DNA of 64,000 nucleotides, from positions 109,076 through 173,075 of IMG/VR virus record IMGVR_UViG_3300033121_001869, one strand, 5' to 3'. Under the pieces are notes generated by a model. It was given only the letters and a program-made list of their open reading frames with translations. It made no database searches and had not been told where the DNA came from. Shown here one piece after another: positions 11,101 through 60,061 of this stretch. This DNA comes from a virus. Its lineage: Duplodnaviria; Heunggongvirae; Uroviricota; Caudoviricetes. Position 1 is the stretch's first letter. Every line of letters starts with the position of its first letter. The position numbers and the translations under genes were made by a program.

Positions 11101-14100
11101 TATTAGCAGGATCTATAAAATCAACCCAAACATCTGAATTGTTATTTGATTTAACATCAATTGTAAATGTATAAGGAACACCGATTTCTATTGTGTTAAA
11201 TTGATAATATGTTTGTGTTCCGCTTATTTTATAAACATCATTAATTTTTGATATTCCAAAAATTCTTTCATCAATTAAATTAATATAAGGATTAAAAGCA
11301 GAATTGACAAAATATCCATCTTGGAAAGTACCATCTAACCAAATAGAATTATCCATCGTAGCATCAAAATTTGAGAATGTTCCAGAAAACCATAACATGT
11401 TTTTAAAGGATGTATCAGGTTTCTTTCTTCTCTTGGTTGATATTCTTTCTATTTCTGTATAGATTTTTTCATCTGTAATAAATCTATCTTTATTCTTACT
11501 AACAAATCCATCTTGCCAATATCCATAATAATACGCATTATAAGTTCTTATAAATTCATTATAGTTAGCAACATCTGTGTCTCCAACGTTAGTTCTTAAA
11601 TTAGAAGCATGTCCTTCAAATTGTCCTCTTGTGAATATACCATTTCTCCAATATTTACCCTTAAATTTACCACCATTAAATTCACCAGTGTACCAAGTCG
11701 AATTACTCTCTGTTGATCCAGATCCAAATTCACCACCATTAAATTTACCATTTTGCCAACTAAATTTATCAGATGTATATCCAAGATACATAAAAGGTGT
11801 TACGATCGATCCATCAAATAAATAATAATGTGAAGTAAATTTACCACCATTAAAAATACCATTTTTCCAAGATGCGACATCTGTAAATTCTCCGCCATTA
11901 AATATACCATCATACCATGTAGAGGAATAAGGATACGTATCATCATAAGTATTTAACATACTAACACCAAAAACACCCGCATTAAAAACACCATCTTTCC
12001 ATTCAATAGATGAATTGTTTGCAAAGTTTGATTGTGGATCCTCACATTTAAAATTCGCATTAATAACATTCACATTACTAAATGTTCCTGTCCATACTCT
12101 CGTATTTTTATATGGTATATTAGTTTTTCCAAAATTACCACCAGTAACCAACCCAGTTAAAAAGTTAGAATCATAGAAATTACCACCAACAAATGATCCA
12201 TATTCAAAATTACTTTTTTCAAAATCTCCATTTTTAAAAGTTCCATTTTTCCAAGACCACCTTGTTTTATTATCCACACCATTATTATCATAATAATAAG
12301 CATCATATGTTTGATCATAAACATTGGCATTTCCAGGCAAATTTGTTGTATTTTTATAGAATAATCCGTTTTCAAAAACACCATCATCCCAAGTACTATT
12401 TCTGAATATACCATTTTTAAATCCGCCGGATTTTAACCAATAATTACTTGAAGAAGTTGGTGATATTGAATAAGTAAAAGAAGATGTATTCCAATATCCA
12501 TTATGGAAAATCCCACCTGACCAAACATCACTTCCAGAAATGAAATGTGAGTATTGAACTAAACCACTCTTGATTGTATTTTTGTTGTTACTAAATATAA
12601 TATCAGATAGTAAAAGCTTTCTAAGATTAGATAAATTACTAAGTTCTCTATCCTTAACATCAAATTCAAAATTATCGACAACACAATTTTCAAAATAGGC
12701 TCTTCTAAAAATACCAGAAGATATTATTGAATTTTGGAACTTAACAGGATGCAAATAATTCCAAGAATTTTTGGCATTCATTGTCTTTAAATACTTCTGT
12801 GAACTAAAATCTGTAAATCCAGTAATAACAGATTGTGTATAAATATCCTGTAAGTAAATATTTCTCGAACTTGTTCCAGATGTAATTGAATTTATTTTAT
12901 AAGTATCTGGCATTGGAATTAAATTATCACCACCATTCAAATTAGAATCATAGTATAATCCATTAATAAAAGCTATATTAGAAACAGAATTAGTGCTGCC
13001 AATAATATCATTTCTTTTTTTACCACCAATTGGTAATGAAATTTCATTTGTAGATGATGTTACAGATGCAATATATCCATTTTTAGATTCAAATGAATAG
13101 TCGGCATTATAATTAAAGTAATTACCCGTTACCCATTTTGAGTTTTTAAATAATCCACTAACAAAATCAGAATCAAGTATATATGCTTTTGAGATGTCAA
13201 TAGTGTCTCCAATAAATGGTCTTGTTGAACTAGAAGATGTTCCATAATCAAAATCTTCACCTAAAGAAATAAAAATATCCAATGATGGTAGTGCAATATC
13301 ATTTGGAACTAATAATGTTGCCGTTCCAGAGATTATACCCGGAGAATTTCTATTCTCCTCCTTAGTTGATAATTGAACTAATACCTTACGTTCTGGTTTA
13401 GATCCCGGGATATCATAAGTTTGATTATAGTATCCTATTGAAAATTTATCATCAAAGAAGTTAAGTAATTCGGTACTCGGAATATTAATTCCAAGATCTT
13501 GGAAGTAAAAATTCTGAAATTCCCTCAATCTTAACCAATTAGTATCTGTCAAATAAAATTTGTACATTTTATAAGGAACATCCATATTTGAATCATACCA
13601 AATAATATTACTTTCCTCATATTCTTGAATCTTAACTATTTTATCTGATAACCAAGTTGAATCTAAAAATACAGAAGCGGCAATTTCTGAATTAACTGAT
13701 TTACACTTTTGTAATAATGAATTAAAAACATAAGAACTTATAATTGTCGAATTACTTATATTAGCAAATAATATATCGCTATTATAATAAACACCACCTC
13801 TTATATTTATTGAATATGTAGTAGAAGTATTAGTTAAGTAATCTTGTAAAACTGATGTTGTTACAGAATTTGTACCATAGACAACAGCCATATTAAATAT
13901 ATTACCATTAATTACATCACCTCCCGTAAAATTTGTATTGAAAATATAATTATACCCACTACCACCATTATTTGATGAATTTGCTCGTATTTGTGGAATC
14001 TCATATCTGTCAAAAACCGTAAAATATGAATTATTATTGACAATTGTAGAATCTAAAATTCCAGACTTCCAATCAACATTTAACGTGGACCCAAGATTCC

Positions 14101-15109
14101 ATTTTATATTATCTCCAACATAGGATATTCTTTCCTCATGTTGTCCAAGAAGTCCTTGATTATATGTTCCACTTTTTAAAAAGCCTCTCCTAAAATGTTG
14201 TTCAGTGATAATAGTTGGTAAATATGTTTTATCTATTTTCCACTTACTTTCTAGTGTATCAAAATAATAAATATATTCATTCTTAAATTTAACTCCACCA
14301 CTCTCAAAATTTCCATTCATTATTCTCAACTTTCCGTTGTTATAAAATCCTGATAACGACTGAGTCCATCCAGAATTTAAATAAGGAATAATGTTATTTG
14401 ATATAACATCTGATGTTATGTTTACAAAATAGTTATTTGATGATGTATTTCCACGAACAACAAATGAATTACCCAAAGATGAATATGTACCTGATAATGA
14501 AAAATCGGAAGCAAAAGATTGTAAGTTATACTCACCATCAACTATTGAAAAAGTCCCATTAAGAAATAGGAAATTATTAAATCCAATATCAAATTTATTT
14601 TGAATAACACCACTATCACTTCTCATTGATAAAACTTGACAATAATAGTCAAACTCATATTGATTAGACGCTACATATATTTTAACAAAATTATCTATTT
14701 CTTCTTCATTTGTCGGTAATTGACCAACATATTTTATATCTAAAACTATCTTACATCTATCAACATATAAAACTTTATATCCATCAACACCTTTTTTATA
14801 TCTATTATTAATAATAAAATTATCAGAATCATAAAATCCACCCTCAATGAAAACTCTATCTCCTAATTTATAATTATGATCTACCTCTGTATAAAAAAGT
14901 GAATAATCAACCCCAGAAATTCTATAAGGCTCAACCCATTTTTTCAATCGTATAGAGAATGTCTTTTTTGTAACATCGGATATTCTTTTTGTATCAATAG
15001 AAACAACACTATTTTCACTAATAGATGAAATATTCAATTGATCATTTTGAGTGATATTTGGCAGTTTTTTTCTTATAGTGACAAGAGGTGATTTACCTTG
15101 AATTTTCAT
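8171..15109 (-). CDS. giant tail fiber or host-recognition structural protein (2312 aa) with internal W-x-NG-x-F-NGG-x-F repeats
   Basis: Single uninterrupted ORF with a repeated motif block (WKDGVFNAGVF, WYDGIFNGGEF, WKNGIFNGGKF, WQNGKFNGGEF, WYTGEFNGGKF, WRNGIFTRGQF). It is immediately followed by the tail-collar gene. Confidence 0.7.
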   Translation of the reverse strand: MKIQGKSPLVTIRKKLPNITQNDQLNISSISENSVVSIDTKRISDVTKKTFSIRLKKWVEPYRISGVDYSLFYTEVDHNYKLGDRVFIEGGFYDSDNFIINNRYKKGVDGYKVLYVDRCKIVLDIKYVGQLPTNEEEIDNFVKIYVASNQYEFDYYCQVLSMRSDSGVIQNKFDIGFNNFLFLNGTFSIVDGEYNLQSFASDFSLSGTYSSLGNSFVVRGNTSSNNYFVNITSDVISNNIIPYLNSGWTQSLSGFYNNGKLRIMNGNFESGGVKFKNEYIYYFDTLESKWKIDKTYLPTIITEQHFRRGFLKSGTYNQGLLGQHEERISYVGDNIKWNLGSTLNVDWKSGILDSTIVNNNSYFTVFDRYEIPQIRANSSNNGGSGYNYIFNTNFTGGDVINGNIFNMAVVYGTNSVTTSVLQDYLTNTSTTYSINIRGGVYYNSDILFANISNSTIISSYVFNSLLQKCKSVNSEIAASVFLDSTWLSDKIVKIQEYEESNIIWYDSNMDVPYKMYKFYLTDTNWLRLREFQNFYFQDLGINIPSTELLNFFDDKFSIGYYNQTYDIPGSKPERKVLVQLSTKEENRNSPGIISGTATLLVPNDIALPSLDIFISLGEDFDYGTSSSSTRPFIGDTIDISKAYILDSDFVSGLFKNSKWVTGNYFNYNADYSFESKNGYIASVTSSTNEISLPIGGKKRNDIIGSTNSVSNIAFINGLYYDSNLNGGDNLIPMPDTYKINSITSGTSSRNIYLQDIYTQSVITGFTDFSSQKYLKTMNAKNSWNYLHPVKFQNSIISSGIFRRAYFENCVVDNFEFDVKDRELSNLSNLRKLLLSDIIFSNNKNTIKSGLVQYSHFISGSDVWSGGIFHNGYWNTSSFTYSISPTSSSNYWLKSGGFKNGIFRNSTWDDGVFENGLFYKNTTNLPGNANVYDQTYDAYYYDNNGVDNKTRWSWKNGTFKNGDFEKSNFEYGSFVGGNFYDSNFLTGLVTGGNFGKTNIPYKNTRVWTGTFSNVNVINANFKCEDPQSNFANNSSIEWKDGVFNAGVFGVSMLNTYDDTYPYSSTWYDGIFNGGEFTDVASWKNGIFNGGKFTSHYYLFDGSIVTPFMYLGYTSDKFSWQNGKFNGGEFGSGSTESNSTWYTGEFNGGKFKGKYWRNGIFTRGQFEGHASNLRTNVGDTDVANYNEFIRTYNAYYYGYWQDGFVSKNKDRFITDEKIYTEIERISTKRRKKPDTSFKNMLWFSGTFSNFDATMDNSIWLDGTFQDGYFVNSAFNPYINLIDERIFGISKINDVYKISGTQTYYQFNTIEIGVPYTFTIDVKSNNNSDVWVDFIDPANKVVDSTDGPGIYSVSWTASNTTSFQLIIQGTSIDIKSIFLYPGTQSGFRGETCIWENGEAYSSDFYYSTWKQGVFDSYANSTQGNSWGIIWKNGIAKYMNAYNVLWENGIWKNGNWNGSPFTQTATYSGVVVYPGFTSDIILNISTYASQSFSNSFNSLYSNWDKIHINNSFLGTNSYSDYNNDLYGITASLSLPTGVGYKKEFSIIGYDLLTENYDWSYFLVNGTSSYTTWTSTGQYPVDSVVVYNNLLYFNTTGNNNPQLPPDLDAVNWTFSGGGGVYQWNPLGSYTFNDLVLYNGFVFENQTGVNGYNPIYGEVLTRFGNGYFLSGVWENGIWNEGWREDLTTIFCDNLAQFDNSLKNKAYKNNIWTWTFDLNVLNVGANSPGLITDFNIGDKVSVGNIVTIDINNNRRLIRDYLEIIDINYDNITNKTSITLEVNINFPIRSIERDSEYHLIYVSKNIWLNGAFLNGMFMNGVWNNGLFKGHPYITQMIDSQWVDGVFKGGIFRGLTSSYEDDNDNIISYHTGLIQKFDFYDENVSGQPYQFKYNSWIDVNFYESEGVNINRINNVYKQTSLGFTASFIENNFYGYPTVDVLESNSTFRNGFDLNSQTYRLGWKWKEYTDFLDGYGEFIDINELIYTNFDNTNQGFGISNFIADGWTFSYLSDGFSPATNSIISNIGSYESEWLYLTGGRRSPQVIPLDDNVNFTVDIFDNSNVEIDNLRYSFIEIEADNLSFTQSSNGVVNPIVFYNNYPATYSIGAINTLFAGSDITIPINQITSPSVVRQREYFFNKRDLKMLLFSGPTYSLRFKKIRFVETDMIPFTQIADDCILFKTISTWDTTPLVLNPGVEGGYVGPLVNPGDPGFNVDDPSNPQVGVSGYAGVWGQALPVDSTSTTSGLDGNLIVIPSQGLPTWDNFYLTGAGAGCLSYINESVNAPFVAVAPDIDYGDSNFNYIKSANVTISETNLNISSVAE
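11570..12560 (-). repeat. imperfect tandem repeats encoding the W-x-NG-x-F-NGG-x-F beta-solenoid-like units
   Basis: The DNA motif (A)AATTTACCACCATTAAA and variants recur at about 11661, 11743, 11839 and 11886. The repeat is visible at protein level throughout. Confidence 0.5.
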
Positions 15110-22884: not shown

Positions 22885-23957
22885 AACTTGGAAAAATCAT
22901 AATTTTTTTCAAAAACATCTTTTATATCTTTTAACTTAATAGTGTCTAAAATATCATAAACGGACCATCCATCTGGAACAAGATACTTTCCAATACTACC
23001 ATATCTTAAAATTTCTTCCTTGTCTCGACGAGCCATATAATAATCTTTAACTAGATTAAATCTATCCTTATTTAGAAATTTATCTTTGTTTTTAAAAACC
23101 TTCTCAACAGCATCAATGACAGCATTAACATTTTTATTAGAAGTTTGTGTTGAAATATTTGTAATTCCTTGCAAATTATGTCTTGATTGATAGCAATGTA
23201 TAAAATATACTAATCCCTTTTCTTCTCTAACTTCTTGGTAAAGAGGAGATTTTAGTCCAAGTGATATCATTGAATTCAAAAAGTGTATTTTATTATTATC
23301 CTCATTCAAAACCGGACTTAACATGATTAAAGATGTCTTATCTTTAAATTGATTTCCGAGTTCAAAAGGAACATTATGATTTGAATATTCAATTGTCTTA
23401 TTTATTTTTCTATCAGAGAAGTCAATATCTAAATTTTTTAATTTTTTTGTTTTTGAAACATTAATGATCTTGGTTGGATTCATGTATTGAGTTTCAAAGA
23501 AATTCAAACAATCCATAAATTTTAAATTTTCCAAATCCTCTCTTAGACCAATAGGATCAAAATCATTAAATAATTTTCTATATAAATTTAGATAATGTGA
23601 TGAAGATTGTTCATTAAAACAATCTTCGTATTCAGATAAGACGATATTTCTTTCATTTTCAAATTGTTCCTTGGTAATATCAAAATTAGAAACTGCTTTT
23701 AAAATTTTATTTCGATACTTATCCAATTTTGATTCCAAACCAGTAAAATGGAAAATAATCTCATTAGTACTTGTACTTGCATTCCAGTCAATGCCATCTC
23801 TATCAAAATCCTCCAATAGGTGGAAAAATGTCTTGCACAAAAGGTGTTCCATGAGGTGAGACAAACCATACCATCCTGGTTTTTCTAAATTTGTTGAACC
23901 CTCATAAACTATATAAAATCCTGAAAGATCATTCTGACTTTTTAAATTAATTATCAT
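22848..23957 (-). CDS. M16 (pitrilysin/insulinase) family zinc peptidase-like protein
   Basis: Inverted zinc-binding motif HxxEH (SHLMEHLL) near the N-terminus. ATG at 23957 (MIINLK). The tracked start at 23966 is a TTG. Confidence 0.6.
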   Translation of the reverse strand: MIINLKSQNDLSGFYIVYEGSTNLEKPGWYGLSHLMEHLLCKTFFHLLEDFDRDGIDWNASTSTNEIIFHFTGLESKLDKYRNKILKAVSNFDITKEQFENERNIVLSEYEDCFNEQSSSHYLNLYRKLFNDFDPIGLREDLENLKFMDCLNFFETQYMNPTKIINVSKTKKLKNLDIDFSDRKINKTIEYSNHNVPFELGNQFKDKTSLIMLSPVLNEDNNKIHFLNSMISLGLKSPLYQEVREEKGLVYFIHCYQSRHNLQGITNISTQTSNKNVNAVIDAVEKVFKNKDKFLNKDRFNLVKDYYMARRDKEEILRYGSIGKYLVPDGWSVYDILDTIKLKDIKDVFEKNYDFSKFYISSDKKEFSK

Positions 23958-25006: not shown

Positions 25007-25890
25007 TTCGATGAGATATTGTTTATATGAATATAAAGATACTCGCCGGTATCTTTTAATTGTAAATTATAAAAATTAGAAGTTTGCAATACAAAATCCA
25101 CTAATGTTTTTGTACCTATATCACTATTTAAAAAATTATTTAATTCATCCACAATGCTTTCATAGTAAACAAAACATCCATCATCATCATTAATAACATA
25201 TTTATCAATTACAGAGGGTAAAAACTGAGCATAATTAGATCCCAATTTATTATGATTTATATAATATGAAATATTTTCAATTAATTGATTTTTAATGTAT
25301 TCAGCGATTTTTGATCCGACCATTTCAATAAATTTCTCAGGAGTTAAATTAATTGTTTTTAGTAATAATTGGCCATATAGTGTATTATGATATCCATAAG
25401 AATATTTAATTATCCACTCTTCGGGACTATCATTTAGAGCTGATACCCAACCCTCACCACCAAGTGAACATGAATAATTTAAATTTAATTTATCATTTAA
25501 ATAATATAAATAAGTATCAACATACCCATTAACATCATTTAGATGAAATTCATCAATAAACATTTTGAAATCTTGTGAAATCAATTTAGATACTTTACTA
25601 TCAAAAAGTTTTTTTATTATATCCAATGTGTAACCAGTTACATCTAGTATCTTTTGCATATCAGAGAAATCCTCCTCTGGGTCTGAATCACCACTAGCTA
25701 AATTTGAAAAATATGATTCATAGTAGGATGATAATGATTTTATCTTTTTTGCTAAATCACTTCTGTGTCTTTTAAAATATGAAATTGTTAAAGAAACTTC
25801 ACCATCTGATAAGTTATCTATTTTATCCCAATTAGATAAAAATTTATTATCGAGCTTCTCATTTAGAAATTGAGAATATTTTTTTATCAT
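25003..25890 (-). CDS. hypothetical protein
   Basis: ORF of 295 aa. Confidence 0.5.
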   Translation of the reverse strand: MIKKYSQFLNEKLDNKFLSNWDKIDNLSDGEVSLTISYFKRHRSDLAKKIKSLSSYYESYFSNLASGDSDPEEDFSDMQKILDVTGYTLDIIKKLFDSKVSKLISQDFKMFIDEFHLNDVNGYVDTYLYYLNDKLNLNYSCSLGGEGWVSALNDSPEEWIIKYSYGYHNTLYGQLLLKTINLTPEKFIEMVGSKIAEYIKNQLIENISYYINHNKLGSNYAQFLPSVIDKYVINDDDGCFVYYESIVDELNNFLNSDIGTKTLVDFVLQTSNFYNLQLKDTGEYLYIHINNISSN

Positions 25891-26723
25891 GCTTTTCCAT
25901 ACTTTTTATAAATAGACATAAAAGATTCGAATTTCTTAACAACAGATCCCTGTCCATCTTTCTTATTCCAAACTTTATTTAAAAAAAGTAGTTTATTTTT
26001 ATCAATTTTACAATTTCTGTTAGAGATATTACCTTTATTAAAAAATCCTATCATTTCCTCCATACTCATAGTAGGATGATGTTTATCAAAATTAGGATCT
26101 GGATGTGACCACCCAAACTTAAATAACCAATTTAATAAAGCCTTTTTATTAAAATCCTTATAGTCCTCGGTTGTTCCATTTCCACTTCTTTTGGAAAGTT
26201 TTTTATTTCCCTCAAATAATAAACCAGCGTGTATTACCTCTGGAAACTTTTTCTCTCCCTCAACCTTACATATTTCCTCCCATACCTTTTCTTGCTTTGG
26301 CAAATTACTAATATGGTCAACTCCTCTTATTATATGTGTTATGTCATAATCATAGTCATCCAAAGTTGAGCAAAAGTTATAAGTTGGAAATCCATTTTTT
26401 CTAAGAATTACCATTTTATAAGATCCCATATCTAACTCTAATCCATTCTCACCTTCAATTCCTATTTTTTCAGCAACTTCTTTATATCTATCCAATCTTT
26501 CAGATTCACGGAAAGTTATATCATAATCCAATCCAAATTCATTCATTTGATCATAGATATAATCTATATACTCTTGTTTATTTCTTTCTTGATCCGTATC
26601 ATCAATACGAAGTATAAATTTACCATTATTAGCTCGAGCCATTAAATAATTTAATAAAGCCGTTCTTAATGTGCCTAAATGAAAAATCCCCGTTGGTGAA
26701 GGAGCCACTCTAGTAACTATCAT
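25887..26723 (-). CDS. truncated class I glutamyl-tRNA synthetase core (GluQ-RS/YadB-like, no anticodon-binding domain)
   Basis: VAPSPTGIFHLGTLRTALLNYL...FILRIDDTDQER carries the HIGH motif. KLSKRSG is the KMSKS motif. GFPTYNFCSTLDD is conserved. The protein ends where the catalytic domain ends, at about 278 aa. Confidence 0.7.
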   Translation of the reverse strand: MIVTRVAPSPTGIFHLGTLRTALLNYLMARANNGKFILRIDDTDQERNKQEYIDYIYDQMNEFGLDYDITFRESERLDRYKEVAEKIGIEGENGLELDMGSYKMVILRKNGFPTYNFCSTLDDYDYDITHIIRGVDHISNLPKQEKVWEEICKVEGEKKFPEVIHAGLLFEGNKKLSKRSGNGTTEDYKDFNKKALLNWLFKFGWSHPDPNFDKHHPTMSMEEMIGFFNKGNISNRNCKIDKNKLLFLNKVWNKKDGQGSVVKKFESFMSIYKKYGKA

Positions 26724-34042: not shown

Positions 34043-34077
34043 AATCTATTTATAAAATAATCACAGTCCCAAGCAAT

Positions 34078-34107
34078 AAAAAATCCCACACTTTTGTGGG
34101 ATTTTTT
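34078..34107. terminator. bidirectional-type hairpin terminator downstream of the S1-like gene
   Basis: AAAAATCCCACA-CTTT-TGTGGGATTTTTT. Confidence 0.55.
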
Positions 34108-34123
34108 ATGATTTTTGGATAAT

Positions 34124-35236
34124 TTAAATCGAGGTAAGGAATATCTTTCGATTAGTTCTATCAATCGCTAAAACTTTAACTCTTATTTCTTGATCAGGTA
34201 GAAATTTTCTACCCAATTTTTCCAATTCAGATGAGTGTATTAAACCCATTGTCTCGTCATCCAATAAGATTAAGGTTCCAAAGTTTTTATTATCTTTAAC
34301 CCTACCATCAATAACTTGTCCAATTTTAATATTATCCCATAGTGATTCACGAATAACTTGTGTTAGGATAATTTTGTCTTTAATAATTTCCTTAACATAG
34401 AAGTCAATTTCCATACCAGGTCGTATATCAGAAATTCTTTCTCTCCAATCAGACTGAATATTAGCCTTATGAATCATTCCTGTTAGACACTCATTAAATT
34501 CAACAAAAACACCAAATGGAGTTGTACCCGTAACATGACCATTATATACCGTTCCTGTCTTCAGTTCTTCAATTGCTTGTGGTATAAGTGTTTTTAAATA
34601 CTTTCTACGGCTAACAATATAAGTTCCTTCTTGGTCAGAATATGATTCAATCATAGCTTCGATTTCCTTCCCGACAATTGAATTTGGATCGTATAATTTA
34701 TTTATACCCGCCAAAGTATTTGGCATAAATCCCGGTAATGTAATACCATCATGTAAAATATCAACGTCATATCCAGCTGGATTCAAATTTTTAATTTGAA
34801 TCATAACAACTAAATCTTCGTCTAGTGATTTTAAATGTTCATGAGCTCTTGACTCATAAATACCACAAATAGATCCTTGTAAATAGTAATTTTCCTCATT
34901 AACTGAAACAAGTAAAATATCAATTCTATCACCAATTTGTGTATTTTTTAAATACTTAACCTCACTGATTCTATTTTCAATATAAACATCATCTTTAAAT
35001 CCATCAATGGAAAAAACATGTTGATTAGCAGAAATTCCCTTGTATATCCCCGAAACAATTTCATTCTCTACGGGTTGGTTAATTTGTACGTTGGTTAGTA
35101 ATTTTAATAAATTTTGGTATTCGGGTGTGTTGGGATATTTAACTTTACGACCTCGACTTTTCCTTTTTTGATCCTGTAATATTAGATCGTCCCAAAATTG
35201 TTTTTCATCAATTTCAATTGATTTATTTTCTATCAT
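34124..35236 (-). CDS. ribosomal protein bS1-like protein with multiple S1 RNA-binding domains (truncated relative to bacterial S1)
   Basis: Several S1 OB-fold repeats. Domain 1 GIYKGISANQHVFSIDGFKDDVYIE...ESRAHEHL parallels E. coli S1 GTVVAIDKDVVLVDAGLKSE...REKAKRHEAW. Later domains carry G.V.G....FG.FV...L.G.IH signatures. Confidence 0.7.
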   Translation of the reverse strand: MIENKSIEIDEKQFWDDLILQDQKRKSRGRKVKYPNTPEYQNLLKLLTNVQINQPVENEIVSGIYKGISANQHVFSIDGFKDDVYIENRISEVKYLKNTQIGDRIDILLVSVNEENYYLQGSICGIYESRAHEHLKSLDEDLVVMIQIKNLNPAGYDVDILHDGITLPGFMPNTLAGINKLYDPNSIVGKEIEAMIESYSDQEGTYIVSRRKYLKTLIPQAIEELKTGTVYNGHVTGTTPFGVFVEFNECLTGMIHKANIQSDWRERISDIRPGMEIDFYVKEIIKDKIILTQVIRESLWDNIKIGQVIDGRVKDNKNFGTLILLDDETMGLIHSSELEKLGRKFLPDQEIRVKVLAIDRTNRKIFLTSI

Positions 35237-36776: not shown

Positions 36777-39700
36777 TTAACCAGTTGTTACATAATAAGT
36801 TGTTACATAATAATTATCTTCATCACAATATATCTTCAATCCATTTCTAAAGATAGAACCCAATAATGATACTTGGTTAGAATTAACCAACAAGATTAGC
36901 TCATACAATTCGGATAATATCCCCGGGCTACCATATTGACCAATTCCATTAGCTAGTGATGCTGGAATAAGTGAGTATATATCGTCAAAAGCATTATCAA
37001 ATTCAGAGTCACTTGTTAATGTTAAAGAATTTAATGATAGATAAGATTCAAAATTACTCCAATTAGGTGAACTACCAGTGGCAGATATCGAACAAGTTCC
37101 AGATATATCCGTAAGAAAATCAGAAAATGGAGTTTTAATGATAAATGCATTAGATGGACCTATCTTATATTGTAGATAGGAAACAAATTGTGGTCCACAA
37201 TCTGGACAACAAAGATTTTGCTCAGATTTTGGAATTGTTAATCCATATGTAATACTACCTAAAATATCCTCAGCATCATAATTATTAATTTCAAATAAAT
37301 ATCGTAAAATTGACTTACAAGATACTTTTTGACTAGCTCCTATTTTAACATCACAAACATCTGATTGATATTTAACTGACAATACATAATGACCCTCTTC
37401 AATTTGAGTATGTATATTTTCATCTCCGGGCGGATATACTCTAAAAATAAAATTTTTACTTAAAAAGATATCTTGTGATAATATTATATCGATTATTTGC
37501 TGATAATAATCTTCCCAATCCTGTTGTGTATTCCCACTTGGAACATCTAATATAGCATCAAAATCAACTGTTACATCGCCAGATTGGAAATGGAATGTTA
37601 TTTCACTACCATCTGTTTCCAATATAAATTGAACATCACATAAATTACCCGTGTCGTATAAAGATGAATTAGTGAATAATTCAATATCATAAAACAAAGG
37701 CATATAATATCCACTATGTCGAAAGAATTTTTTAAAAACATTTGATTTTTGATTATTTAAATTTTTCAAAATTTTATCATCCTTCTTTATATTGAATATT
37801 TCAACACCAAGTGGTAAATCATTATAAAAATCAATCTTCTCAAGATTGTCTATCTGACCATTGATTAAATACCTATATGGTTTTAAATTGGTTTTATCTA
37901 TTGTGTTTGGTTTATATATGAGTGAATTATTTTTTAAATTAAAAGAATCTGGCTCTTCACAGATTAAAATATATGGTAGATTTTCCAAATTATTGCGGAA
38001 GCTGTATTTAGAAATAGATCCATTTTCCTCAATAATAACATATGAGGTATAATCAACAAACCCATACAATGAATCTAAATCATTTATTTGTCTTATAAAA
38101 TTGGCAGCTGTCAATCTGCCATTTGTTTCCTTATATAAATAATCTCTTTCAATATTTTTGGTTTCATCCATGATATTATCATTACCTAAAATTGTATTAT
38201 CATTAATACTTATATTAACTAAAATATTTTTCCATTTTTTATTGATGAATATAGTAATACCACTATCAATAGTCAAATCTGGATTAAATTTACAATAGTA
38301 ATAACAGTCATTTATCTTAATAATTGAATTATCATCAGGTTGATAATTATAAGTTGTATCGGGAACAAAACTATAAATTCTTCTCCAAGATGTAGATTCT
38401 CCCGGTATTTCATCCGAATTTGTACCTATATCAGTAAAATATAAAACATCATTATAACAAACAAATGTATTTGGATCATAAATAGGAAGATTTTTATCCC
38501 ACAATTGAACAGGTATCCATTTTGGGTAAGAACTTCCAACTCCTACTTGAGAAGAAACCTCTGACCAATAATTTGTGACACTTGATGATTGTATTTTTCG
38601 ATTATATGTTAACGGACGAATACCAGATGGGACAGAATAATTAGACATGTAAAATCTATTATTGTAGATAACATATGTTCCGCTTGAATATGTCGTTCCT
38701 GGATTCCAAAAATCAAAACCACTTGGGTTATAATTATAGTAATATTCGTCGAATTTATAAACCCAAGATGATGTTGATCCAGATGTATTATAAGATGACA
38801 CAGAATTCCAAAATTGATTAAATGTAGTTTCAATTTGATAGTTTGTTGATAATGTCGTAGGATTATCATAAGGATTTGATATAGAATCTCCAATAATAAC
38901 TCTAAAAATTATACCTTCATAAAAAACAAAATCATTAATTTGATATTGCTTATCATGCTCCCAATTTTTAATTACATCCCATTGCATTTTCTTTCTCCAT
39001 ATGCCTGGTTGAGCATAAGATGATGTATGATACATTTTATCTAAAACAACACCATATCCAGCAGTTTGTAATGCGCCATATGTTGCAACAATTGATGCAG
39101 TTGCTTGATATTGTGGTGTCACATAAGGATAGAACTGATCTATTTCTAAATAATCACCAATATTGAAAACTGATGGTGTAGCTGAATATGATGTTAATAA
39201 TGATAATTTATTATTAGATTTTGTCGTATCAATAAAATAATCCCATTCATATGGTTTATATAGTCCACCACTATCAGATACCATCCAATCATTACTACTC
39301 AAAAGTATAGAAAATTTATAATCTTGAAATTTATTACTGGACACCAAATTAATATTCTCAATAAATGTTGAATTATATTTAATGTTATCAACTTCGAAAA
39401 GTCTAAATTTTAATCCTCTAAATAATGTAGTATTTGGAATAACATTGTCACCTGTTTCGAACCAAGAATATTTCTTTCGATTCATTACTATCTCACCATC
39501 AATAAATGACTGTGTAGTTGAAAAAAATAAATCAAAATAATTAAAATCATATGAATAATCTAATCCAGAAAGTGAGTAAGATCCAAGTTCTAAATATTTA
39601 TCAATCTCAAATCTATATGAGGAATCTTGAAATTGTCCGAAATTTTTCTCAACATGTAAAGAGTGGAATAAATATGAAGTAGTTCCCGAATTAACTGTAT

Positions 39701-41711
39701 AGAAATAATCTAAATTTCTAGATGTCCTATCAGGAATTAGATTTTGAGTATCGACAGTTCTATTAAATTGCTCATGAATATCATTATTATTCAATAAATA
39801 TGGATAATCATATGATGATAATGAATTTTGATATACCCATCGAGTATGTATTGGATTCTTCCTCCAAATATCGGAAAGCTTTTTATCCAAAATTCTAAAA
39901 GTTTCCCAATTTGCTGTATAATCAGAAGCTACCGGAACATTTTCAGTTTTTCCCTTAAATATAAAATCATCAAAATCTTGTGGTGAGGAAGAACTTCTTA
40001 AATCTGTTAACATCATTTTAGATTCCTCAGTTTTATTTAAATCATTTCTCTTTTCATATTCAAATCTAGAAAATTCAGTGTCTATGATATTTGTATCAAA
40101 ATCTTTAATATCGCTAAATTTAGCTCGATATATTTTAAAATTTTTCGGTGGATTATTAGTTTTTATTAAAAGATCAATAGAGTTTGTATATCCATCTTCT
40201 CCTGAATTAGTATAATATGTAAATTTACTATTTATGGCATATTTAAATCCATAATCCGAGACAACCTTAACATAACCATCTTCAATAATTAAATTGTGAT
40301 AAATACCATCAATATCAATAATATTAACATCAGCAAATGTAAAATCTGATATTTCATATGGGGTGCCATCTATTTTGACTATTTGATTTTGTTCATTAAT
40401 ATAACAAGTTTTTTGATTCAAGTAAGATTGCTGTCCTGATAAATTTATATCTGATATAATTCTATATTTTGTAACAACTGGATTATTAACACTATCAATT
40501 ACTACCTTTTTATTATTAGAACCTTTACTAACTGCACTAACCGATGTCTCTAATGTTTCTTCGAATTTTTTAACTATATAAAAATCACCATTGTATTCAA
40601 CCCACATATCTATATCAGATCTATACCCATCAACAAAAGGATCTCCATGAGAATCACTTGAAATAATATTTCCAGATCCTGTTGGACCATAAATAGTCAC
40701 ATCATTATGTAATCTTGGTAAGACAAAAGGAGTTATTTTATCAATAACTTCTAATTCATCTAAATAAAATCCAGAATATCGATTTAAAGACCATTTTCTT
40801 ATTGAAGTTGGAGATGAAGGGGTATCATCAAAAAGATAACTAATATTTAAAATATGTGGAAATATGACTTTATTAACTCTGAATCCATCCAAAAACATTT
40901 TCTCAAAGTCAAATAAATTATTTTCATTTTCTAAATTCTCATCTAAATAGAAAGATTTTGAAACATATCCACCACTATCATAATCAATGCCATTCCACTT
41001 ACTAAATTCTAATTCATTAAAATCAATCTCTAAAGGAGCAACTGGAAAATTAGCATTATTAGAGAAATTATTATAAATCCACTCACCAAATAAAGTATTT
41101 TTAGTTAAGTCAAATATCTTAACTGTTTTTAATTTTTGTAAAAATTCAGTTCTGAAGTTCTCTCTTGTCAAATTTATAAGTCCAGGACCATCAACTCTAA
41201 AAATAATAAAGTATTTGGGAATGGAATGTTTAAAAACATACAATGGCGCAAAATATTCAAATTCTTCTTTATAATTTTTATTATCAATTATATTTCGAGC
41301 ACCTGATAAATATGTATCATCATATTGTGATGCAAAATCTGTTGACATATTATCATTATCATTATCATATTTTATAGATAATGCCAAATCAATAGGGAAA
41401 TCCTTAAAAAAGTAAGGAATTAATTCATCCAAATAATTGTTTTTATTGAACTGTACCTTCTTAAATCGAGTTGACGATAACTCAGGCGCTGAATCAATGC
41501 TCTCCATATAAAAATTATATTGAGAATCAACCATAATTTTTATATTACCTGTTAATCCAGTATTTGTTCTTAATATTGAGAAACTTCGCAACTTAAAATG
41601 TTTTTTAAATATATATTTAAAAGTTAATGGCTTAATGAGATTTATAAAAAGAATAAATGAATTATCAGATAATAGAATAGATTTTCTTTGGGATTTTTTC
41701 ATTGAAGCCAA
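36777..41711 (-). CDS. large virion structural protein (1644 aa; tail or baseplate-associated); true start probably internal
   Basis: Long uninterrupted ORF. The first about 60 codons are Lys/Phe-rich and look like AT-rich non-coding. M60 (nt 41534) or M69 (nt 41507) is a more plausible start. Confidence 0.65.
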   Translation of the reverse strand: MASMKKSQRKSILLSDNSFILFINLIKPLTFKYIFKKHFKLRSFSILRTNTGLTGNIKIMVDSQYNFYMESIDSAPELSSTRFKKVQFNKNNYLDELIPYFFKDFPIDLALSIKYDNDNDNMSTDFASQYDDTYLSGARNIIDNKNYKEEFEYFAPLYVFKHSIPKYFIIFRVDGPGLINLTRENFRTEFLQKLKTVKIFDLTKNTLFGEWIYNNFSNNANFPVAPLEIDFNELEFSKWNGIDYDSGGYVSKSFYLDENLENENNLFDFEKMFLDGFRVNKVIFPHILNISYLFDDTPSSPTSIRKWSLNRYSGFYLDELEVIDKITPFVLPRLHNDVTIYGPTGSGNIISSDSHGDPFVDGYRSDIDMWVEYNGDFYIVKKFEETLETSVSAVSKGSNNKKVVIDSVNNPVVTKYRIISDINLSGQQSYLNQKTCYINEQNQIVKIDGTPYEISDFTFADVNIIDIDGIYHNLIIEDGYVKVVSDYGFKYAINSKFTYYTNSGEDGYTNSIDLLIKTNNPPKNFKIYRAKFSDIKDFDTNIIDTEFSRFEYEKRNDLNKTEESKMMLTDLRSSSSPQDFDDFIFKGKTENVPVASDYTANWETFRILDKKLSDIWRKNPIHTRWVYQNSLSSYDYPYLLNNNDIHEQFNRTVDTQNLIPDRTSRNLDYFYTVNSGTTSYLFHSLHVEKNFGQFQDSSYRFEIDKYLELGSYSLSGLDYSYDFNYFDLFFSTTQSFIDGEIVMNRKKYSWFETGDNVIPNTTLFRGLKFRLFEVDNIKYNSTFIENINLVSSNKFQDYKFSILLSSNDWMVSDSGGLYKPYEWDYFIDTTKSNNKLSLLTSYSATPSVFNIGDYLEIDQFYPYVTPQYQATASIVATYGALQTAGYGVVLDKMYHTSSYAQPGIWRKKMQWDVIKNWEHDKQYQINDFVFYEGIIFRVIIGDSISNPYDNPTTLSTNYQIETTFNQFWNSVSSYNTSGSTSSWVYKFDEYYYNYNPSGFDFWNPGTTYSSGTYVIYNNRFYMSNYSVPSGIRPLTYNRKIQSSSVTNYWSEVSSQVGVGSSYPKWIPVQLWDKNLPIYDPNTFVCYNDVLYFTDIGTNSDEIPGESTSWRRIYSFVPDTTYNYQPDDNSIIKINDCYYYCKFNPDLTIDSGITIFINKKWKNILVNISINDNTILGNDNIMDETKNIERDYLYKETNGRLTAANFIRQINDLDSLYGFVDYTSYVIIEENGSISKYSFRNNLENLPYILICEEPDSFNLKNNSLIYKPNTIDKTNLKPYRYLINGQIDNLEKIDFYNDLPLGVEIFNIKKDDKILKNLNNQKSNVFKKFFRHSGYYMPLFYDIELFTNSSLYDTGNLCDVQFILETDGSEITFHFQSGDVTVDFDAILDVPSGNTQQDWEDYYQQIIDIILSQDIFLSKNFIFRVYPPGDENIHTQIEEGHYVLSVKYQSDVCDVKIGASQKVSCKSILRYLFEINNYDAEDILGSITYGLTIPKSEQNLCCPDCGPQFVSYLQYKIGPSNAFIIKTPFSDFLTDISGTCSISATGSSPNWSNFESYLSLNSLTLTSDSEFDNAFDDIYSLIPASLANGIGQYGSPGILSELYELILLVNSNQVSLLGSIFRNGLKIYCDEDNYYVTTYYVTTG

Positions 41712-50667: not shown

Positions 50668-51279
50668 ATGACATCGAAGGCAATTTTTTTCCCAGAACAA
50701 GAACAATTTTTTAAAGAAAGAACAGGTAAGGATTTTATATTTTTTTATCAAAAATACTATCCAAAACTACTTTACTACACATCAAAGATGTGTTTATCAG
50801 CTAAAATGGATTCTGCTAAAGCAGAGGACATCTCCACAGATTCATTTCTAATCGCATTTGAAAAAATCGATAAATATGAAAAAGAAAAAGCTCAATTCTC
50901 AACATGGCTATTTACGATAGCTAGAAATCTTATGCTACAAGAAATAAAAAACAATGGCAAAACAATGTCAATGGATATTGAAGTAGATGATGAGGGAACA
51001 ACAATGAAAGATTTTCTAAAAGAGGCAGAATCGGAGCAACCAAGACAAAATCTAATTGAGAAAAAAGCAGAAATAATGCTTAAACATATTTCTCAACTAA
51101 AAGAACCCTATAAACAAGTAATTGAAATGAGGGAAATTAAAAAAATGGCATATAAAGATATTGCCAGTCATTTAGGCAAAAACCTATCTACAATTAAATC
51201 GCAAATAAGAAACGGTAGAGCTATTCTAATTGCAGAATCTGAAAAGGAATTCGCACAACTTGAAGAAATGTATCTATAA
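50668..51279 (+). CDS. RNA polymerase sigma-70 family factor (ECF-like: regions 2 and 4)
   Basis: Region 2 FSTWLFTIARNLMLQEIK and a region 4 helix-turn-helix YKDIASHLGKNLSTIKSQIRNGRAIL. Confidence 0.7.
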   Translation: MTSKAIFFPEQEQFFKERTGKDFIFFYQKYYPKLLYYTSKMCLSAKMDSAKAEDISTDSFLIAFEKIDKYEKEKAQFSTWLFTIARNLMLQEIKNNGKTMSMDIEVDDEGTTMKDFLKEAESEQPRQNLIEKKAEIMLKHISQLKEPYKQVIEMREIKKMAYKDIASHLGKNLSTIKSQIRNGRAILIAESEKEFAQLEEMYL

Positions 51280-51296
51280 AAAAATAATAAAATAAA

Positions 51297-51608
51297 ATGG
51301 CAGTTAAAGTAACAGATGAAAATTTTAAAGACTTCACATCAAATGGTGTGGCTTTAGTGGATATTTATGCAGAATGGTGCGGACCTTGTAAAGTCGTTGG
51401 ACCAATTGTTGAACAATTATCCAATGAGTATGATAACGTGAAAATTGGAAAATTAGATGCAGACGAAAATAAAGAGACAACACTTGAATTAGGAGTTCGT
51501 AGTATTCCAACAATACTAATCTATAAAAATGGTGAAATCGTTGAAAAACATGTTGGAGCAGCATCCAAATCACATTTAAAATCATTAATTGATAAACATT
51601 TGATTTAA
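51297..51608 (+). CDS. trxA: thioredoxin
   Basis: WCGPCK active site in the expected thioredoxin fold, about 103 aa. Confidence 0.85.
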   Translation: MAVKVTDENFKDFTSNGVALVDIYAEWCGPCKVVGPIVEQLSNEYDNVKIGKLDADENKETTLELGVRSIPTILIYKNGEIVEKHVGAASKSHLKSLIDKHLI

Positions 51609-53091: not shown

Positions 53092-53093
53092 TG

Positions 53094-53155
53094 AAAAGTA
53101 GGAAGTAGGTGTGGCGCAACCTGTAAACGGCAGAACCTGTTTACCCTACTTTTTT
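53094..53155 (+). ncRNA. structured leader or attenuator-like RNA element upstream of smpB (or terminator of the upstream operon)
   Basis: Direct repeat GTAGG-AA-GTAGG gives two alternative partners for the downstream CCTAC. Inner hairpin GTAAAC-ggcagaacct-GTTTAC. Duplicated AACCTGT. A U6 run follows. Confidence 0.35.
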
Positions 53156-53167
53156 AATAGAAATAAA

Positions 53168-53611
53168 ATGAAAATAGTTAATAGAAAAGCATATTATGAT
53201 TATCATGTACTCGATGAATTTATCGCCGGTATTATGCTTTCTGGATCTGAAGTAAAGTCATTAAGACAAAGTGATGTTAATTTTAATGATGCATATATTA
53301 TTTTCAGTAAAGGCGAATTATTCATAAAAAATATGAGAATAGCATCGTATAAAGATGCAACATATAATAATCATGATGAAAAGCGTGATAAGAAAATCCT
53401 CTTAAAAAAGAGAGAGATAAATAAGATTTCAAGAGAGATAAGTGAGAAAGGAATATCTGTTATACCACTTGAAATTTTCATGATAAAGAATCGTTTTAAA
53501 ATAAAAATTGGAATTTGTCGTGGTAAAAAGAATTGGAATAAAAAGGAAATTATAAAAACAAAAGATATTGAAAGAGATATAAAAAGAAATGAGGGTTTAA
53601 AATTAAAATAA
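53168..53611 (+). CDS. smpB: SsrA-binding protein SmpB
   Basis: YHVLDEFIAGIMLSGSEVKSLRQSDVNFNDAYIIFSKGELFIKNMRIASYK...HDEKRDKKILLKKREINKI...KGISVIPLEIFMIKNRFKIKIGICRGKK aligns along its length with bacterial SmpB. The ATG at 53168 is preferred over the GTG at 53111. Confidence 0.8.
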   Translation: MKIVNRKAYYDYHVLDEFIAGIMLSGSEVKSLRQSDVNFNDAYIIFSKGELFIKNMRIASYKDATYNNHDEKRDKKILLKKREINKISREISEKGISVIPLEIFMIKNRFKIKIGICRGKKNWNKKEIIKTKDIERDIKRNEGLKLK

Positions 53612-53716
53612 ATTTGTGGTAATACATAGTAAGTTAATAAGTTATTAGTAGAATCTCCTTGATAAACCTTACGAATCCACACTTAAATTAATATAATAAT
53701 AAATGAAGGAGAATAT

Positions 53717-53740
53717 GGTCGGATTTATCCGACCTTTTTT
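53717..53740 (+). terminator. intrinsic terminator after smpB
   Basis: GGTCGGAT-TT-ATCCGACC followed by TTTTTT. Confidence 0.7.
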
Positions 53741-53780
53741 ATTTTATATTTTTAATATATAAGTAAATAAAAATTTTTAA

Positions 53781-54089: not shown

Positions 54090-54494
54090 ATGACTCTTAA
54101 AGAAAAAATTAATGCTGACTTCATGACAGCATTTAAGGAGAAAAGATTTGAAGTAAAATCTTTACTTGGTACAATTAAAGGTGAAATCCAAACCACAGAA
54201 AAAAATCTAAGAATAGAAAATCTTTCTGATGAGGAAGTATCTAAAATTCTTAACAAATTTGTCAAGAATTTAAAAGAAAATATAAAATTGGTTAATGATG
54301 ATAAATCAAAATTTGAGCTTGAAATTATTGAATCATACTTGCCAAAAAATCTTTCAGAAGAGGAAATTGAAATTAAAATCAACTCACTTGTTAATTCAGG
54401 TATTAAAAATATTGGATTAATAATGAAAGAATTTTCTAATTTGCCTGTTGATAAAAAATTAGTATCTGATATAGCCAAAAAGCTAATTTCATGA
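54090..54494 (+). CDS. GatB/YqeY-domain protein
   Basis: MTLKEKINADFMTAFKEK...EIIESYLPKNLSEEEIEIKINSLV parallels YqeY MSLKEQI..DLK.AMKAKD...ILEEYLPQQLSEEEI. Confidence 0.7.
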   Translation: MTLKEKINADFMTAFKEKRFEVKSLLGTIKGEIQTTEKNLRIENLSDEEVSKILNKFVKNLKENIKLVNDDKSKFELEIIESYLPKNLSEEEIEIKINSLVNSGIKNIGLIMKEFSNLPVDKKLVSDIAKKLIS

Positions 54495-57127: not shown

Positions 57128-57655
57128 ATGGCAAAAAAGATTTTCAAGAAAGAAAGAAAACATCGGATTAACAACGAAGTTAAATTTCCACAAGTTAGAA
57201 TTATAGGTGATTTTAACGGTGTGATAATGTCCTCATACGAGGCATATCAGATAGCACAGGATGAAGAAAAAGATTTAATTTTAATAAACGAAAACGCTAA
57301 TCCACCAGTTGTCAGAATTGAAGATTATGGAAAATTCATCTATGATCAAGAAAAAAAGGAAAAAGAGGCTAAAAAAATATCCAAAAAAACTGAATTAAAA
57401 GAAATATCATTATCTCTGACAATAGCAGATCATGACTTAGGAATTAAAGCTAAAAAAGCCAATGAATTTTTGGTGGATGGTGATAAAGTCAAACTTTCAC
57501 TCTTAATGAAGGGAAGACAAAACACAATGAAAGAGCAAGGAGAATTGGTTATGTTAAAATTTGCAACACTTGTTGAAAATCACGGAATTCCTGAAGCAAT
57601 GCCAAGGCTAGAAGGAAATAGATGGCACATGATTCTAAAACCAAAGAAAAAATGA
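57128..57655 (+). CDS. infC: translation initiation factor IF-3
   Basis: RINNEVKFPQVRIIGDFNGVIMSSYEAYQIAQDEEKDLILINENANPPVVRIEDYGKFIYD aligns to E. coli IF3 [63 protein letters not shown]. The C-terminal domain ends ...ILKPKKK. Confidence 0.8.
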   Translation: MAKKIFKKERKHRINNEVKFPQVRIIGDFNGVIMSSYEAYQIAQDEEKDLILINENANPPVVRIEDYGKFIYDQEKKEKEAKKISKKTELKEISLSLTIADHDLGIKAKKANEFLVDGDKVKLSLLMKGRQNTMKEQGELVMLKFATLVENHGIPEAMPRLEGNRWHMILKPKKK

Positions 57656-59365: not shown

Positions 59366-60061
59366 ATGAATACTGGATTATCAAAAAAAGATATAAACAA
59401 ATATATGGATAACATAAAAGGATTAACTCCATATATTCTAGAAGAAAGAGAATTAAGAGCAACTCAAATTGATGTTTTTAGTAGGCTATTAAGAGATAGA
59501 ATAATCTGGGTATCAGGAGTTGTTGATCAACACATGTCAGATATTGTGCAAGCTCAATTGTTATTCTTAGATTCAGTTGAAACTAAAGATATTACATTAT
59601 ACATAAATTCACCTGGCGGATCTGTACTATGTGGATTGGGAATAATTGATCTTATGAATTATATTTCATCTGATGTAGCAACAGTTAATATAGGTATGTG
59701 TGCCTCTATGGGTTCTGTTTTACTTTCATCGGGAACAAAGGGTAAAAGATCATCACTACTATATTCAAAAGTAATGACTCATCAGGTTTCACACGGAACA
59801 GAAGGAAATATACAAGATACAAGAATTAATCAAATGGAAGCAGAAAAATACAACTATCTTTTATTTAAAATTCTTGCACAAAATTGTGGTAAAACAGTCG
59901 ATGAAGTTTTAGATTTCTCCAGAAGAGACAGATGGTATAACTCCGATGAAGCACTTTCATTTGGTTTAATTGATGAGGTAATAGGATCAGATAAAATAAC
60001 AATAACCTCAATGTTAGAGGGATTTGATGACTATTATAATAAAGAAGTTCTGAAAAAATAA
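59366..60061 (+). CDS. clpP: ATP-dependent Clp protease proteolytic subunit ClpP
   Basis: Catalytic Ser in GMCASMGS, His in MTHQ, and the conserved RIIWVSG...YINSPGGSV core. Confidence 0.85.
   Translation: MNTGLSKKDINKYMDNIKGLTPYILEERELRATQIDVFSRLLRDRIIWVSGVVDQHMSDIVQAQLLFLDSVETKDITLYINSPGGSVLCGLGIIDLMNYISSDVATVNIGMCASMGSVLLSSGTKGKRSSLLYSKVMTHQVSHGTEGNIQDTRINQMEAEKYNYLLFKILAQNCGKTVDEVLDFSRRDRWYNSDEALSFGLIDEVIGSDKITITSMLEGFDDYYNKEVLKK

Follow-up and report, generated by a model that had tools for sequence, protein, structure and literature searches.

A full-length SmpB in a Mahaphage-type megaphage and its probable reliance on a host tmRNA

Phage-encoded halves of the ribosome-rescue system

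The encoding by a phage of one half of the ribosome-rescue system is documented from the side of the RNA: Hudson et al. (2014; PMC4131195) listed phages that carry ssrA and none that carries smpB, and in having half of the system phage-encoded, the gene described here resembles the Bxz1-group mycobacteriophages, Bacillus phage G, and the TLD-only phage DS6A treated in that work. With respect to the ssrA-only phages, however, it is a mirror image, in that the phage here supplies the protein, and it is the RNA that is missing. Huge phages with tmRNAs and SmpB were reported in 2020 by Al-Shayeb et al. (PMC7162821), and the smpB genes of two of their genomes, LR745206 and LR756502, are annotated in the supplementary GenBank files of that paper; these SmpBs, along with those of LR756501/4 and of the Lak phages, are the closest known counterparts of the present gene. 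A phage-encoded SmpB, as described in the first-pass annotation of this DNA, is accordingly not new. Al-Shayeb et al. nevertheless list tmRNA and SmpB jointly, the state of possessing SmpB without tmRNA not being stated there for LR745206 and LR756502; and our literature search found no paper that draws attention to these megaphages having SmpB alone, a condition that appears to have gone unnoted so far.

The gene lies in a 64,000-nucleotide stretch of an IMG/VR virus record, which stretch we refer to as the window. In comparison with the smpB genes of LR745206 and LR756502, it has the same syntenic position, a protein identity of 46-51%, and a similar vicinity of tRNA arrays, translation factors, and a sigma factor; the window, in contrast, represents a lineage that is new at the sequence level, and contains an additional gene for the initiation factor IF3. 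The phage protein resembles the SmpB of the bacterial SmpB-tmRNA system in scoring above the equivalog cutoffs and in retaining the tmRNA-binding residues, the decoding-center residues, and the tail; but its RNA partner would come from the host instead of from the same genome, no bacterial SmpB found is more than 50% identical to the phage SmpB, and the D-K-R motif is replaced by N-K-K. A further likeness is to Carsonella ruddii PC and some hemoplasmas, in which smpB is constrained with no tmRNA gene in the genome (PMC4131195). Those genomes, however, are cellular and reduced, no tmRNA can reach them from outside, and several have lost the central loop or the tail of SmpB, whereas the phage SmpB is complete and has the tmRNA of a host available.

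The phage and its smpB gene

A nucleotide search of a phage collection with the window gave no match, and the search for close relatives in IMG/VR gave neither an exact 40-mer match nor a tblastn-confirmed relative. Counterparts of the window ORFs were found by tblastn in LR745206 (634,780 bp; 42 of 79 ORFs) and in LR756502 (642,428 bp; 44 of 79), the matches being mostly colinear, with identities of up to 79%, so that positions 558-53611 of the window correspond to 294,779-333,380 of the former genome and 319,536-368,019 of the latter, with smpB at the matching position in both. A conserved 1057-aa jumbo-phage protein of the window is 67% identical in a relative, and the window has other PHROG matches typical of jumbo phages, namely an SbcC-like nuclease, an RNA ligase, Sir2, a primase, and a weak tail-fiber match. 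The two related genomes are curated as complete, with Bacteroidetes as predicted hosts, and every genome of such size is assigned by their authors to the "Mahaphage" clade (PMC7162821); the window agrees with that clade in gene content and gene order, the formal definition of the clade being a terminase/capsid phylogeny. The genome of the window's phage is probably larger than 400 kb. Two long ORFs on the minus strand, at 8171-15109 (2312 aa) and 36777-41702 (1641 aa), had no PHROG match and are 36-46% identical to counterparts in both relatives, their products presumably being virion or tail proteins.

The smpB gene and its flanks comprise the following features:

53093..53160, plus strand: branched hairpin, rich in G+C, with a T-run after it (fold of -23.2 kcal/mol with z=-3.0)
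53168..53611, plus strand: smpB, encoding a 147-aa SsrA-binding protein with a beta-barrel body and a complete C-terminal tail (Pfam, NCBIfam, PDB alignment, dN/dS)
53612..53780, plus strand: spacer from smpB to the next gene, 169 nt, with no tmRNA-like element
53717..53744, plus strand: intrinsic terminator of smpB, with a 7-bp stem, a 4-nt loop, and a T-run

The ORF begins with ATG and ends with TAA. Its product matched Pfam PF01668 with E=6e-49 and 166 bits (cutoff 27) over profile positions 3-140 of 143, as well as the NCBIfam equivalogs TIGR00086 (165 bits, cutoff 119) and NF003843 (165 bits, cutoff 130). In phmmer searches, SmpB chains of five species in the PDB (7ljp, 1p6v, 5zey, and the T. 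thermophilus and E. coli chains; E from 3e-35 to 3e-21) aligned with residues 4-140, the C-terminal tail included, the gaps being of a single residue at most and the central loop being present. Both the profile scores and this end-to-end alignment bear out the earlier description of the protein as a full-length SmpB, whose family in PHROGs, phrog_6791, is annotated as of unknown function. The identical 147-aa product is found in public gene calls, with the same neighbors, on 11 metagenome contigs; a longer reading from a GTG at 53111, which version would cross the upstream hairpin, is absent from the public gene records. Within the phage lineage the SmpB identities extend from 46% to 99%, a protein 85% identical to that of the window being found on contigs of 226-444 kb, while a search of 185,579 GTDB species genomes gave a best identity of no more than 50%. 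The segment 53168-53611 is a genuine full-length smpB within a phage genome.

As to the downstream spacer, which had been described as some 170 nt containing a terminator hairpin and nothing resembling a tRNA or ssrA, we arrived at the same picture: the hairpin GGTCGGATTTATCCGACC at 53717-53734, followed by the T-run, is the sole strong feature in the 169 nt, and neither ARAGORN nor Rfam detected a tRNA-like or ssrA element there. Apart from the terminator, the sequence folds no better than when shuffled (53612-53750, z=-1.1). The hairpin is kept, with a different stem sequence, in the relative with the 85%-identical SmpB (contig L011), and the spacer has no aligning counterpart in LR745206 or LR756502. 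Two candidate elements were rejected: a "CGAATCC" with a slight resemblance to a T-loop, for which there was no tRNA-like fold, no Rfam match at E<=10, and only the aforementioned z value; and a mini-ORF in the terminator that has an AAGGAG resembling a Shine-Dalgarno sequence, which mini-ORF is not conserved in the 85% relative.

On the other side, the upstream hairpin stops 12 nt before the smpB start, contains a terminator-like site at 53123-53144, and resembles a terminator serving the preceding 82-aa gene; it may be a partial terminator or a processing site. With such a structure in that position, the expression of smpB would have to come from read-through or from a promoter ahead of the hairpin. 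A candidate promoter motif 84 nt upstream of smpB, a -7 box of the Bacteroidetes type (TAnnTTTG), was discarded, the observed number of such boxes for the window genes being 9 versus an expected 7.8, and sigma-70-like sites were not enriched upstream of the window genes. In L011, the 3' part of the upstream hairpin is present, but what comes next is an ORF of 64 aa overlapping the start of smpB.

The gene is located among others related to translation and proteostasis, whose products are an ECF-type sigma factor, thioredoxin, YqeY, IF3, NUDIX, ClpP, HIT, and FKBP; genes for an S1-like and a GluRS/GluQRS-like protein are situated further upstream in the window. Those with a bearing on what follows are:

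34124..35236, minus strand: ribosomal protein S1-like, with multiple S1 domains (all S1 models below their cutoffs)
54090..54494, plus strand: YqeY/GatB-like protein, translation-associated (Pfam PF09424, 57 bits; PHROG 1460)
57128..57655, plus strand: translation initiation factor IF3 (NCBIfam TIGR00168, 152 bits, cutoff 60)
59366..60061, plus strand: cellular-type ClpP subunit with the Ser/His/Asp motifs present (NF011091, 218 bits)

By tblastn, the neighbors of the IF3 gene have counterparts in LR745206 and LR756502 but IF3 itself has none, which finding indicates that the translation-factor content varies between related megaphages. The ClpP match is below the equivalog cutoff of NF011091, and the prohead-protease models gave 65-70 bits; in bacteria, proteins tagged by tmRNA are degraded by the ClpP family of proteases. 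The GluRS/GluQRS-type protein (25887-26723, minus strand; 278 aa) consists of the catalytic domain alone, without the anticodon-binding domain, and is 79% identical to the product of an LR745206 gene at a non-syntenic position. Otherwise near-identical phage populations differed, furthermore, in the presence or absence of homing endonucleases: a GIY-YIG/NUMOD gene that lies between the sigma factor and thioredoxin in some contigs (L002 4387-5100, L003 4474-5172, L005 2751-3464) is absent from the window (51279-51297), and a second GIY-YIG gene, after ClpP, is present only in L002 and L056.

Selection and functional residues of the phage SmpB

In the comparison with the 85%-identical relative, dN/dS was 0.05-0.07 (about 0.06), with a dS above 1, from which values it follows that smpB is under strong purifying selection. 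To locate the functional residues we used the numbering of the E. coli sequence, the PDB alignments being consistent with it. According to that numbering, the phage protein retains N17, Y24, G33, E40, K42, R86, and K89; the Leu90-92 patch is represented by I-L-L (77-79) and K124 by K111, and N5, K7, and Y12, in the phage protein's own numbering, are conserved. With this patch, the K124 equivalent, and the conserved N-terminal residues, the tmRNA-binding surface is preserved in the alignment.

The equivalent of Glu31 in the phage protein is Ile. In a comparison with 16 bacterial sequences and 5 from the PDB, the loss of this Glu stood out as a signature of the clade, but the effect was gone with 150 representatives: since Glu occupies the position in only 97 of 150 diverse SmpBs (65%), its absence is not diagnostic. 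The substitution E31A weakens the binding of tmRNA by SmpB.

The Leu90-92 hydrophobic patch constitutes the stacking surface for G19 of tmRNA, and the His or Tyr at position 136 stacks on G530 of the 16S rRNA and activates EF-Tu (PMC8363625, PMC4151336). The tail of the phage protein, R-G-K-K-N-W-N-K-K-E-I-I-K-T-K-D-I-E-R-D-I-K-R, comprises the hinge Gly132, K133-K134, a Trp at 136, K138, and R/K139, followed by a basic helix, so that the basic stretch, the hinge, and the aromatic residue are all there, with D-K-R in the form of N-K-K. Throughout the roughly 117 phage-clade homologs, tail and body are conserved to the same degree, with the hinge Gly present in 100%, K133 and K134 in 97-98%, K138 in 97%, and an aromatic residue at 136 in 109 of 117 (93%). 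The change from D-K-R to N-K-K is found in this sub-lineage; among 150 diverse SmpBs, the first position of the motif is Asn in 2 and the Arg is replaced by Lys in 15. The N-K-K motif and the Ile at the Glu31 position might possibly alter the behavior of this SmpB.

These features bear on the suggestion of the first-pass annotation that the phage protein would either work with the tmRNA of the host or sequester it. An SmpB acting as an inhibitor, by titrating or misdirecting host tmRNA and so shutting down trans-translation, would be consistent with the missing phage tmRNA partner, with the rarity of N-K-K in place of a near-invariant D-K-R, and with a precedent on the RNA side, since titration of SmpB has been proposed for the TLD-only tmRNA fragment of DS6A (PMC4131195). 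Such a sponge, however, needs only the RNA-binding body, whereas here the tail is complete and conserved in the clade, and the selection is strongly purifying; moreover, single D-K-R substitutions have marginal effects only (PMC8363625), and most clade members have kept D-K-R. A complete, conserved, ribosome-entering tail together with a dN/dS of about 0.06 therefore speaks for a functional factor of ribosome rescue rather than for a sponge of tmRNA. We thus consider unlikely an inhibitory role, which might serve, for instance, to spare phage proteins from tagging or to block a stalled-ribosome alarm. Sequestration of the host tmRNA is less likely than a working rescue with it, and the two options are not on a par.

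The search for a tmRNA and the proposed reliance on the host

In the 64-kb window, ARAGORN detected neither a tmRNA nor a tRNA at default or relaxed thresholds, and Rfam nothing of any family at the gathering score and no tmRNA family at E<=10. When ARAGORN was relaxed in the search for a hidden tmRNA (-ps, -ps90, -ps80), nothing appeared at the mild settings, and the permuted calls, 1 at -ps90 and dozens at -ps80, had nonsense tags in coding or tRNA regions and were rejected as noise. Two sub-threshold Rfam matches, a rimP leader at 34047-34148 (plus strand; 31 bits, E=0.44) adjoining the S1-like gene and a CRISPR-DR35 at 23455-23509 (minus strand; 27 bits, E=0.42), are probably due to chance. 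Since the window spans some 10% of a megaphage genome, scans of the window alone cannot show the absence of a tmRNA from the entire phage. Nor can weight be laid, as had been done, on the lack of ssrA beside smpB, for in 16 bacterial smpB loci from many phyla, scanned with ARAGORN, ssrA was within 3 kb in none, so that a missing tmRNA in the adjacent sequence is uninformative.

A contig of the same phage population, L056, contains the FKBP gene of the window at 10001-10417 and extends 10 kb past the window. In those 10 kb, ARAGORN and Rfam found 15 tRNAs and no tmRNA, the tRNA array (L056 10941-14696) starting about 520 nt after the FKBP stop, just off the window, and being followed by two genes for class II aminoacyl-tRNA synthetases. 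An odd tRNA-like gene of 81 nt at L056 11312-11392, present in L057 and L058 as well, combines a long variable arm with an anticodon loop of 6 nt, its anticodon being read by ARAGORN as "cc"; we considered this gene as a tmRNA-like partner and rejected it on account of the long variable arm and an ordinary acceptor stem without G3:U70. Similar odd tRNAs, with "anticodons" of 2 or 4 nt, occur in LR745206 (L022 11364-11437 and 23836-23923).

Both closed relatives were scanned in 50-kb pieces, the ssrA of E. coli, as a positive control, being detected by the same ARAGORN build. The whole genome of LR745206 has about 60 tRNAs and gave no tmRNA, either with ARAGORN (default and -ps) or with Rfam at the gathering score. 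That of LR756502 has 46 tRNAs and gave no tmRNA with ARAGORN (default, -ps, and -ps90), nor with Rfam in the 100-kb region containing smpB and nearly all of the tRNA arrays. The searches with ARAGORN and tmRNA models that the first-pass annotation had proposed thus located no tmRNA in the same genome as smpB, be it in the window, over the 10 kb next to it, or in the two complete relatives. The SmpB-only state holds for the two nearest closed genomes and probably extends to the window's phage, whose own genome was scanned in the window and the adjacent 10 kb. With tmRNA absent genome-wide in the two complete relatives, dependence on the host tmRNA becomes the natural reading, which part of the earlier suggestion consequently stands.

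Within or adjoining their tRNA arrays, both relatives also have a full-length GOLLD RNA (RF02032; 287 and 275 bits), at L022 24875-25280 (LR745206 420,875-421,280) and L035 38685-39091 (LR756502 434,685-435,091), and in LR756502 a tRNA begins 10 nt beyond the GOLLD RNA. Such an RNA probably exists in the window's phage as well, outside the window.

We propose, with moderate confidence, that this is a functional smpB of a Mahaphage-type megaphage belonging to a lineage without a tmRNA of its own, and that its product, paired with the tmRNA of the host, maintains ribosome rescue. In the infected host, the identity of which is itself a prediction, the phage SmpB would be made beside the phage IF3, the S1-like protein, the aminoacyl-tRNA synthetases, and dozens of tRNAs. 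It would bind the tRNA-like domain of the host tmRNA and, through the entry of its C-terminal tail into stalled ribosomes, would keep trans-translation going, by which means ribosomes might be freed for phage proteins when the supply of host SmpB drops or when non-stop mRNAs accumulate. The phage ClpP, encoded 6 kb downstream of smpB, could help to remove the tagged products.

If, alternatively, the phage possessed a paired system, its tmRNA gene would have to lie beyond the 64 kb of the window, for instance further into the tRNA arrays. Room for such a gene exists in the 85-90% of the phage's own genome that lies beyond the scans, the tRNA arrays begin just past the window with their first 10 kb covered, and there are huge phages that do have a tmRNA (PMC7162821; the unrelated marine megaphage Mar_Mega_1, PMC9723777). 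Against this possibility are the two complete syntenic relatives, with no tmRNA according to ARAGORN and none according to Rfam in the entire LR745206 or in the tRNA region of LR756502, in addition to the negative results in the window and L056; and we regard a paired system as quite improbable. Only a slender chance is given, too, to a takeover, in which a whole lineage among the largest phages known, having long kept the protein half alone of ribosome rescue, would displace the host SmpB or use an unrecognized phage RNA partner. In that event the phage SmpB, with its N-K-K motif and Trp at the base of the tail, would displace the host SmpB on the host tmRNA and so alter the timing or the choice of the ribosomes rescued, or would pair with the phage RNA; a takeover, if true, would amount to more than the topping up of the host system.

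A role independent of tmRNA, whether with another RNA, such as an unrecognized one of the phage, or in a regulation unrelated to trans-translation, is suggested by those bacteria that keep a constrained smpB after the loss of ssrA, which retention points to independent functions (PMC4131195), as well as by the richness of megaphage genomes in structured RNAs, of which GOLLD is an example. We hold such a role to be very unlikely nevertheless, in view of the retention in the phage SmpB of every feature specific to the engagement of tmRNA and the ribosome, and of the lack of any candidate partner RNA adjoining smpB, the flanking spacers being terminators that are not conserved in the 46-51% relatives. 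That the gene could be a host smpB in a phage record or a bacterial contaminant, as are many database matches to "phage" SmpB that prove to be host smpB lying at the edge of a prophage record (for phages of Staphylococcus, Klebsiella, and E. coli, positions 46-459 being an example), is scarcely credible for an internal gene with no ssrA nearby, contained in a colinear block common to curated closed megaphage genomes, in the same order on 11 independent metagenome contigs, and with the low identity to the GTDB SmpBs given above.

The proposal of a phage SmpB working with the host tmRNA refines, without changing, the known picture of the translation genes of huge phages, to which it is a modest addition: a well-supported case, and a pattern at the level of the clade, of giant phages that have one half of trans-translation and would borrow the other half from the host. 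The kind of gene is already known, and a separation of SmpB from tmRNA throughout the clade is the point that can be tested. If the proposal were confirmed experimentally, the phage protein would provide a natural SmpB variant for studying the recognition of tmRNA across species, and the capacity for ribosome rescue would be indicated as a limit to phage production in the long, translation-heavy infections of megaphages.
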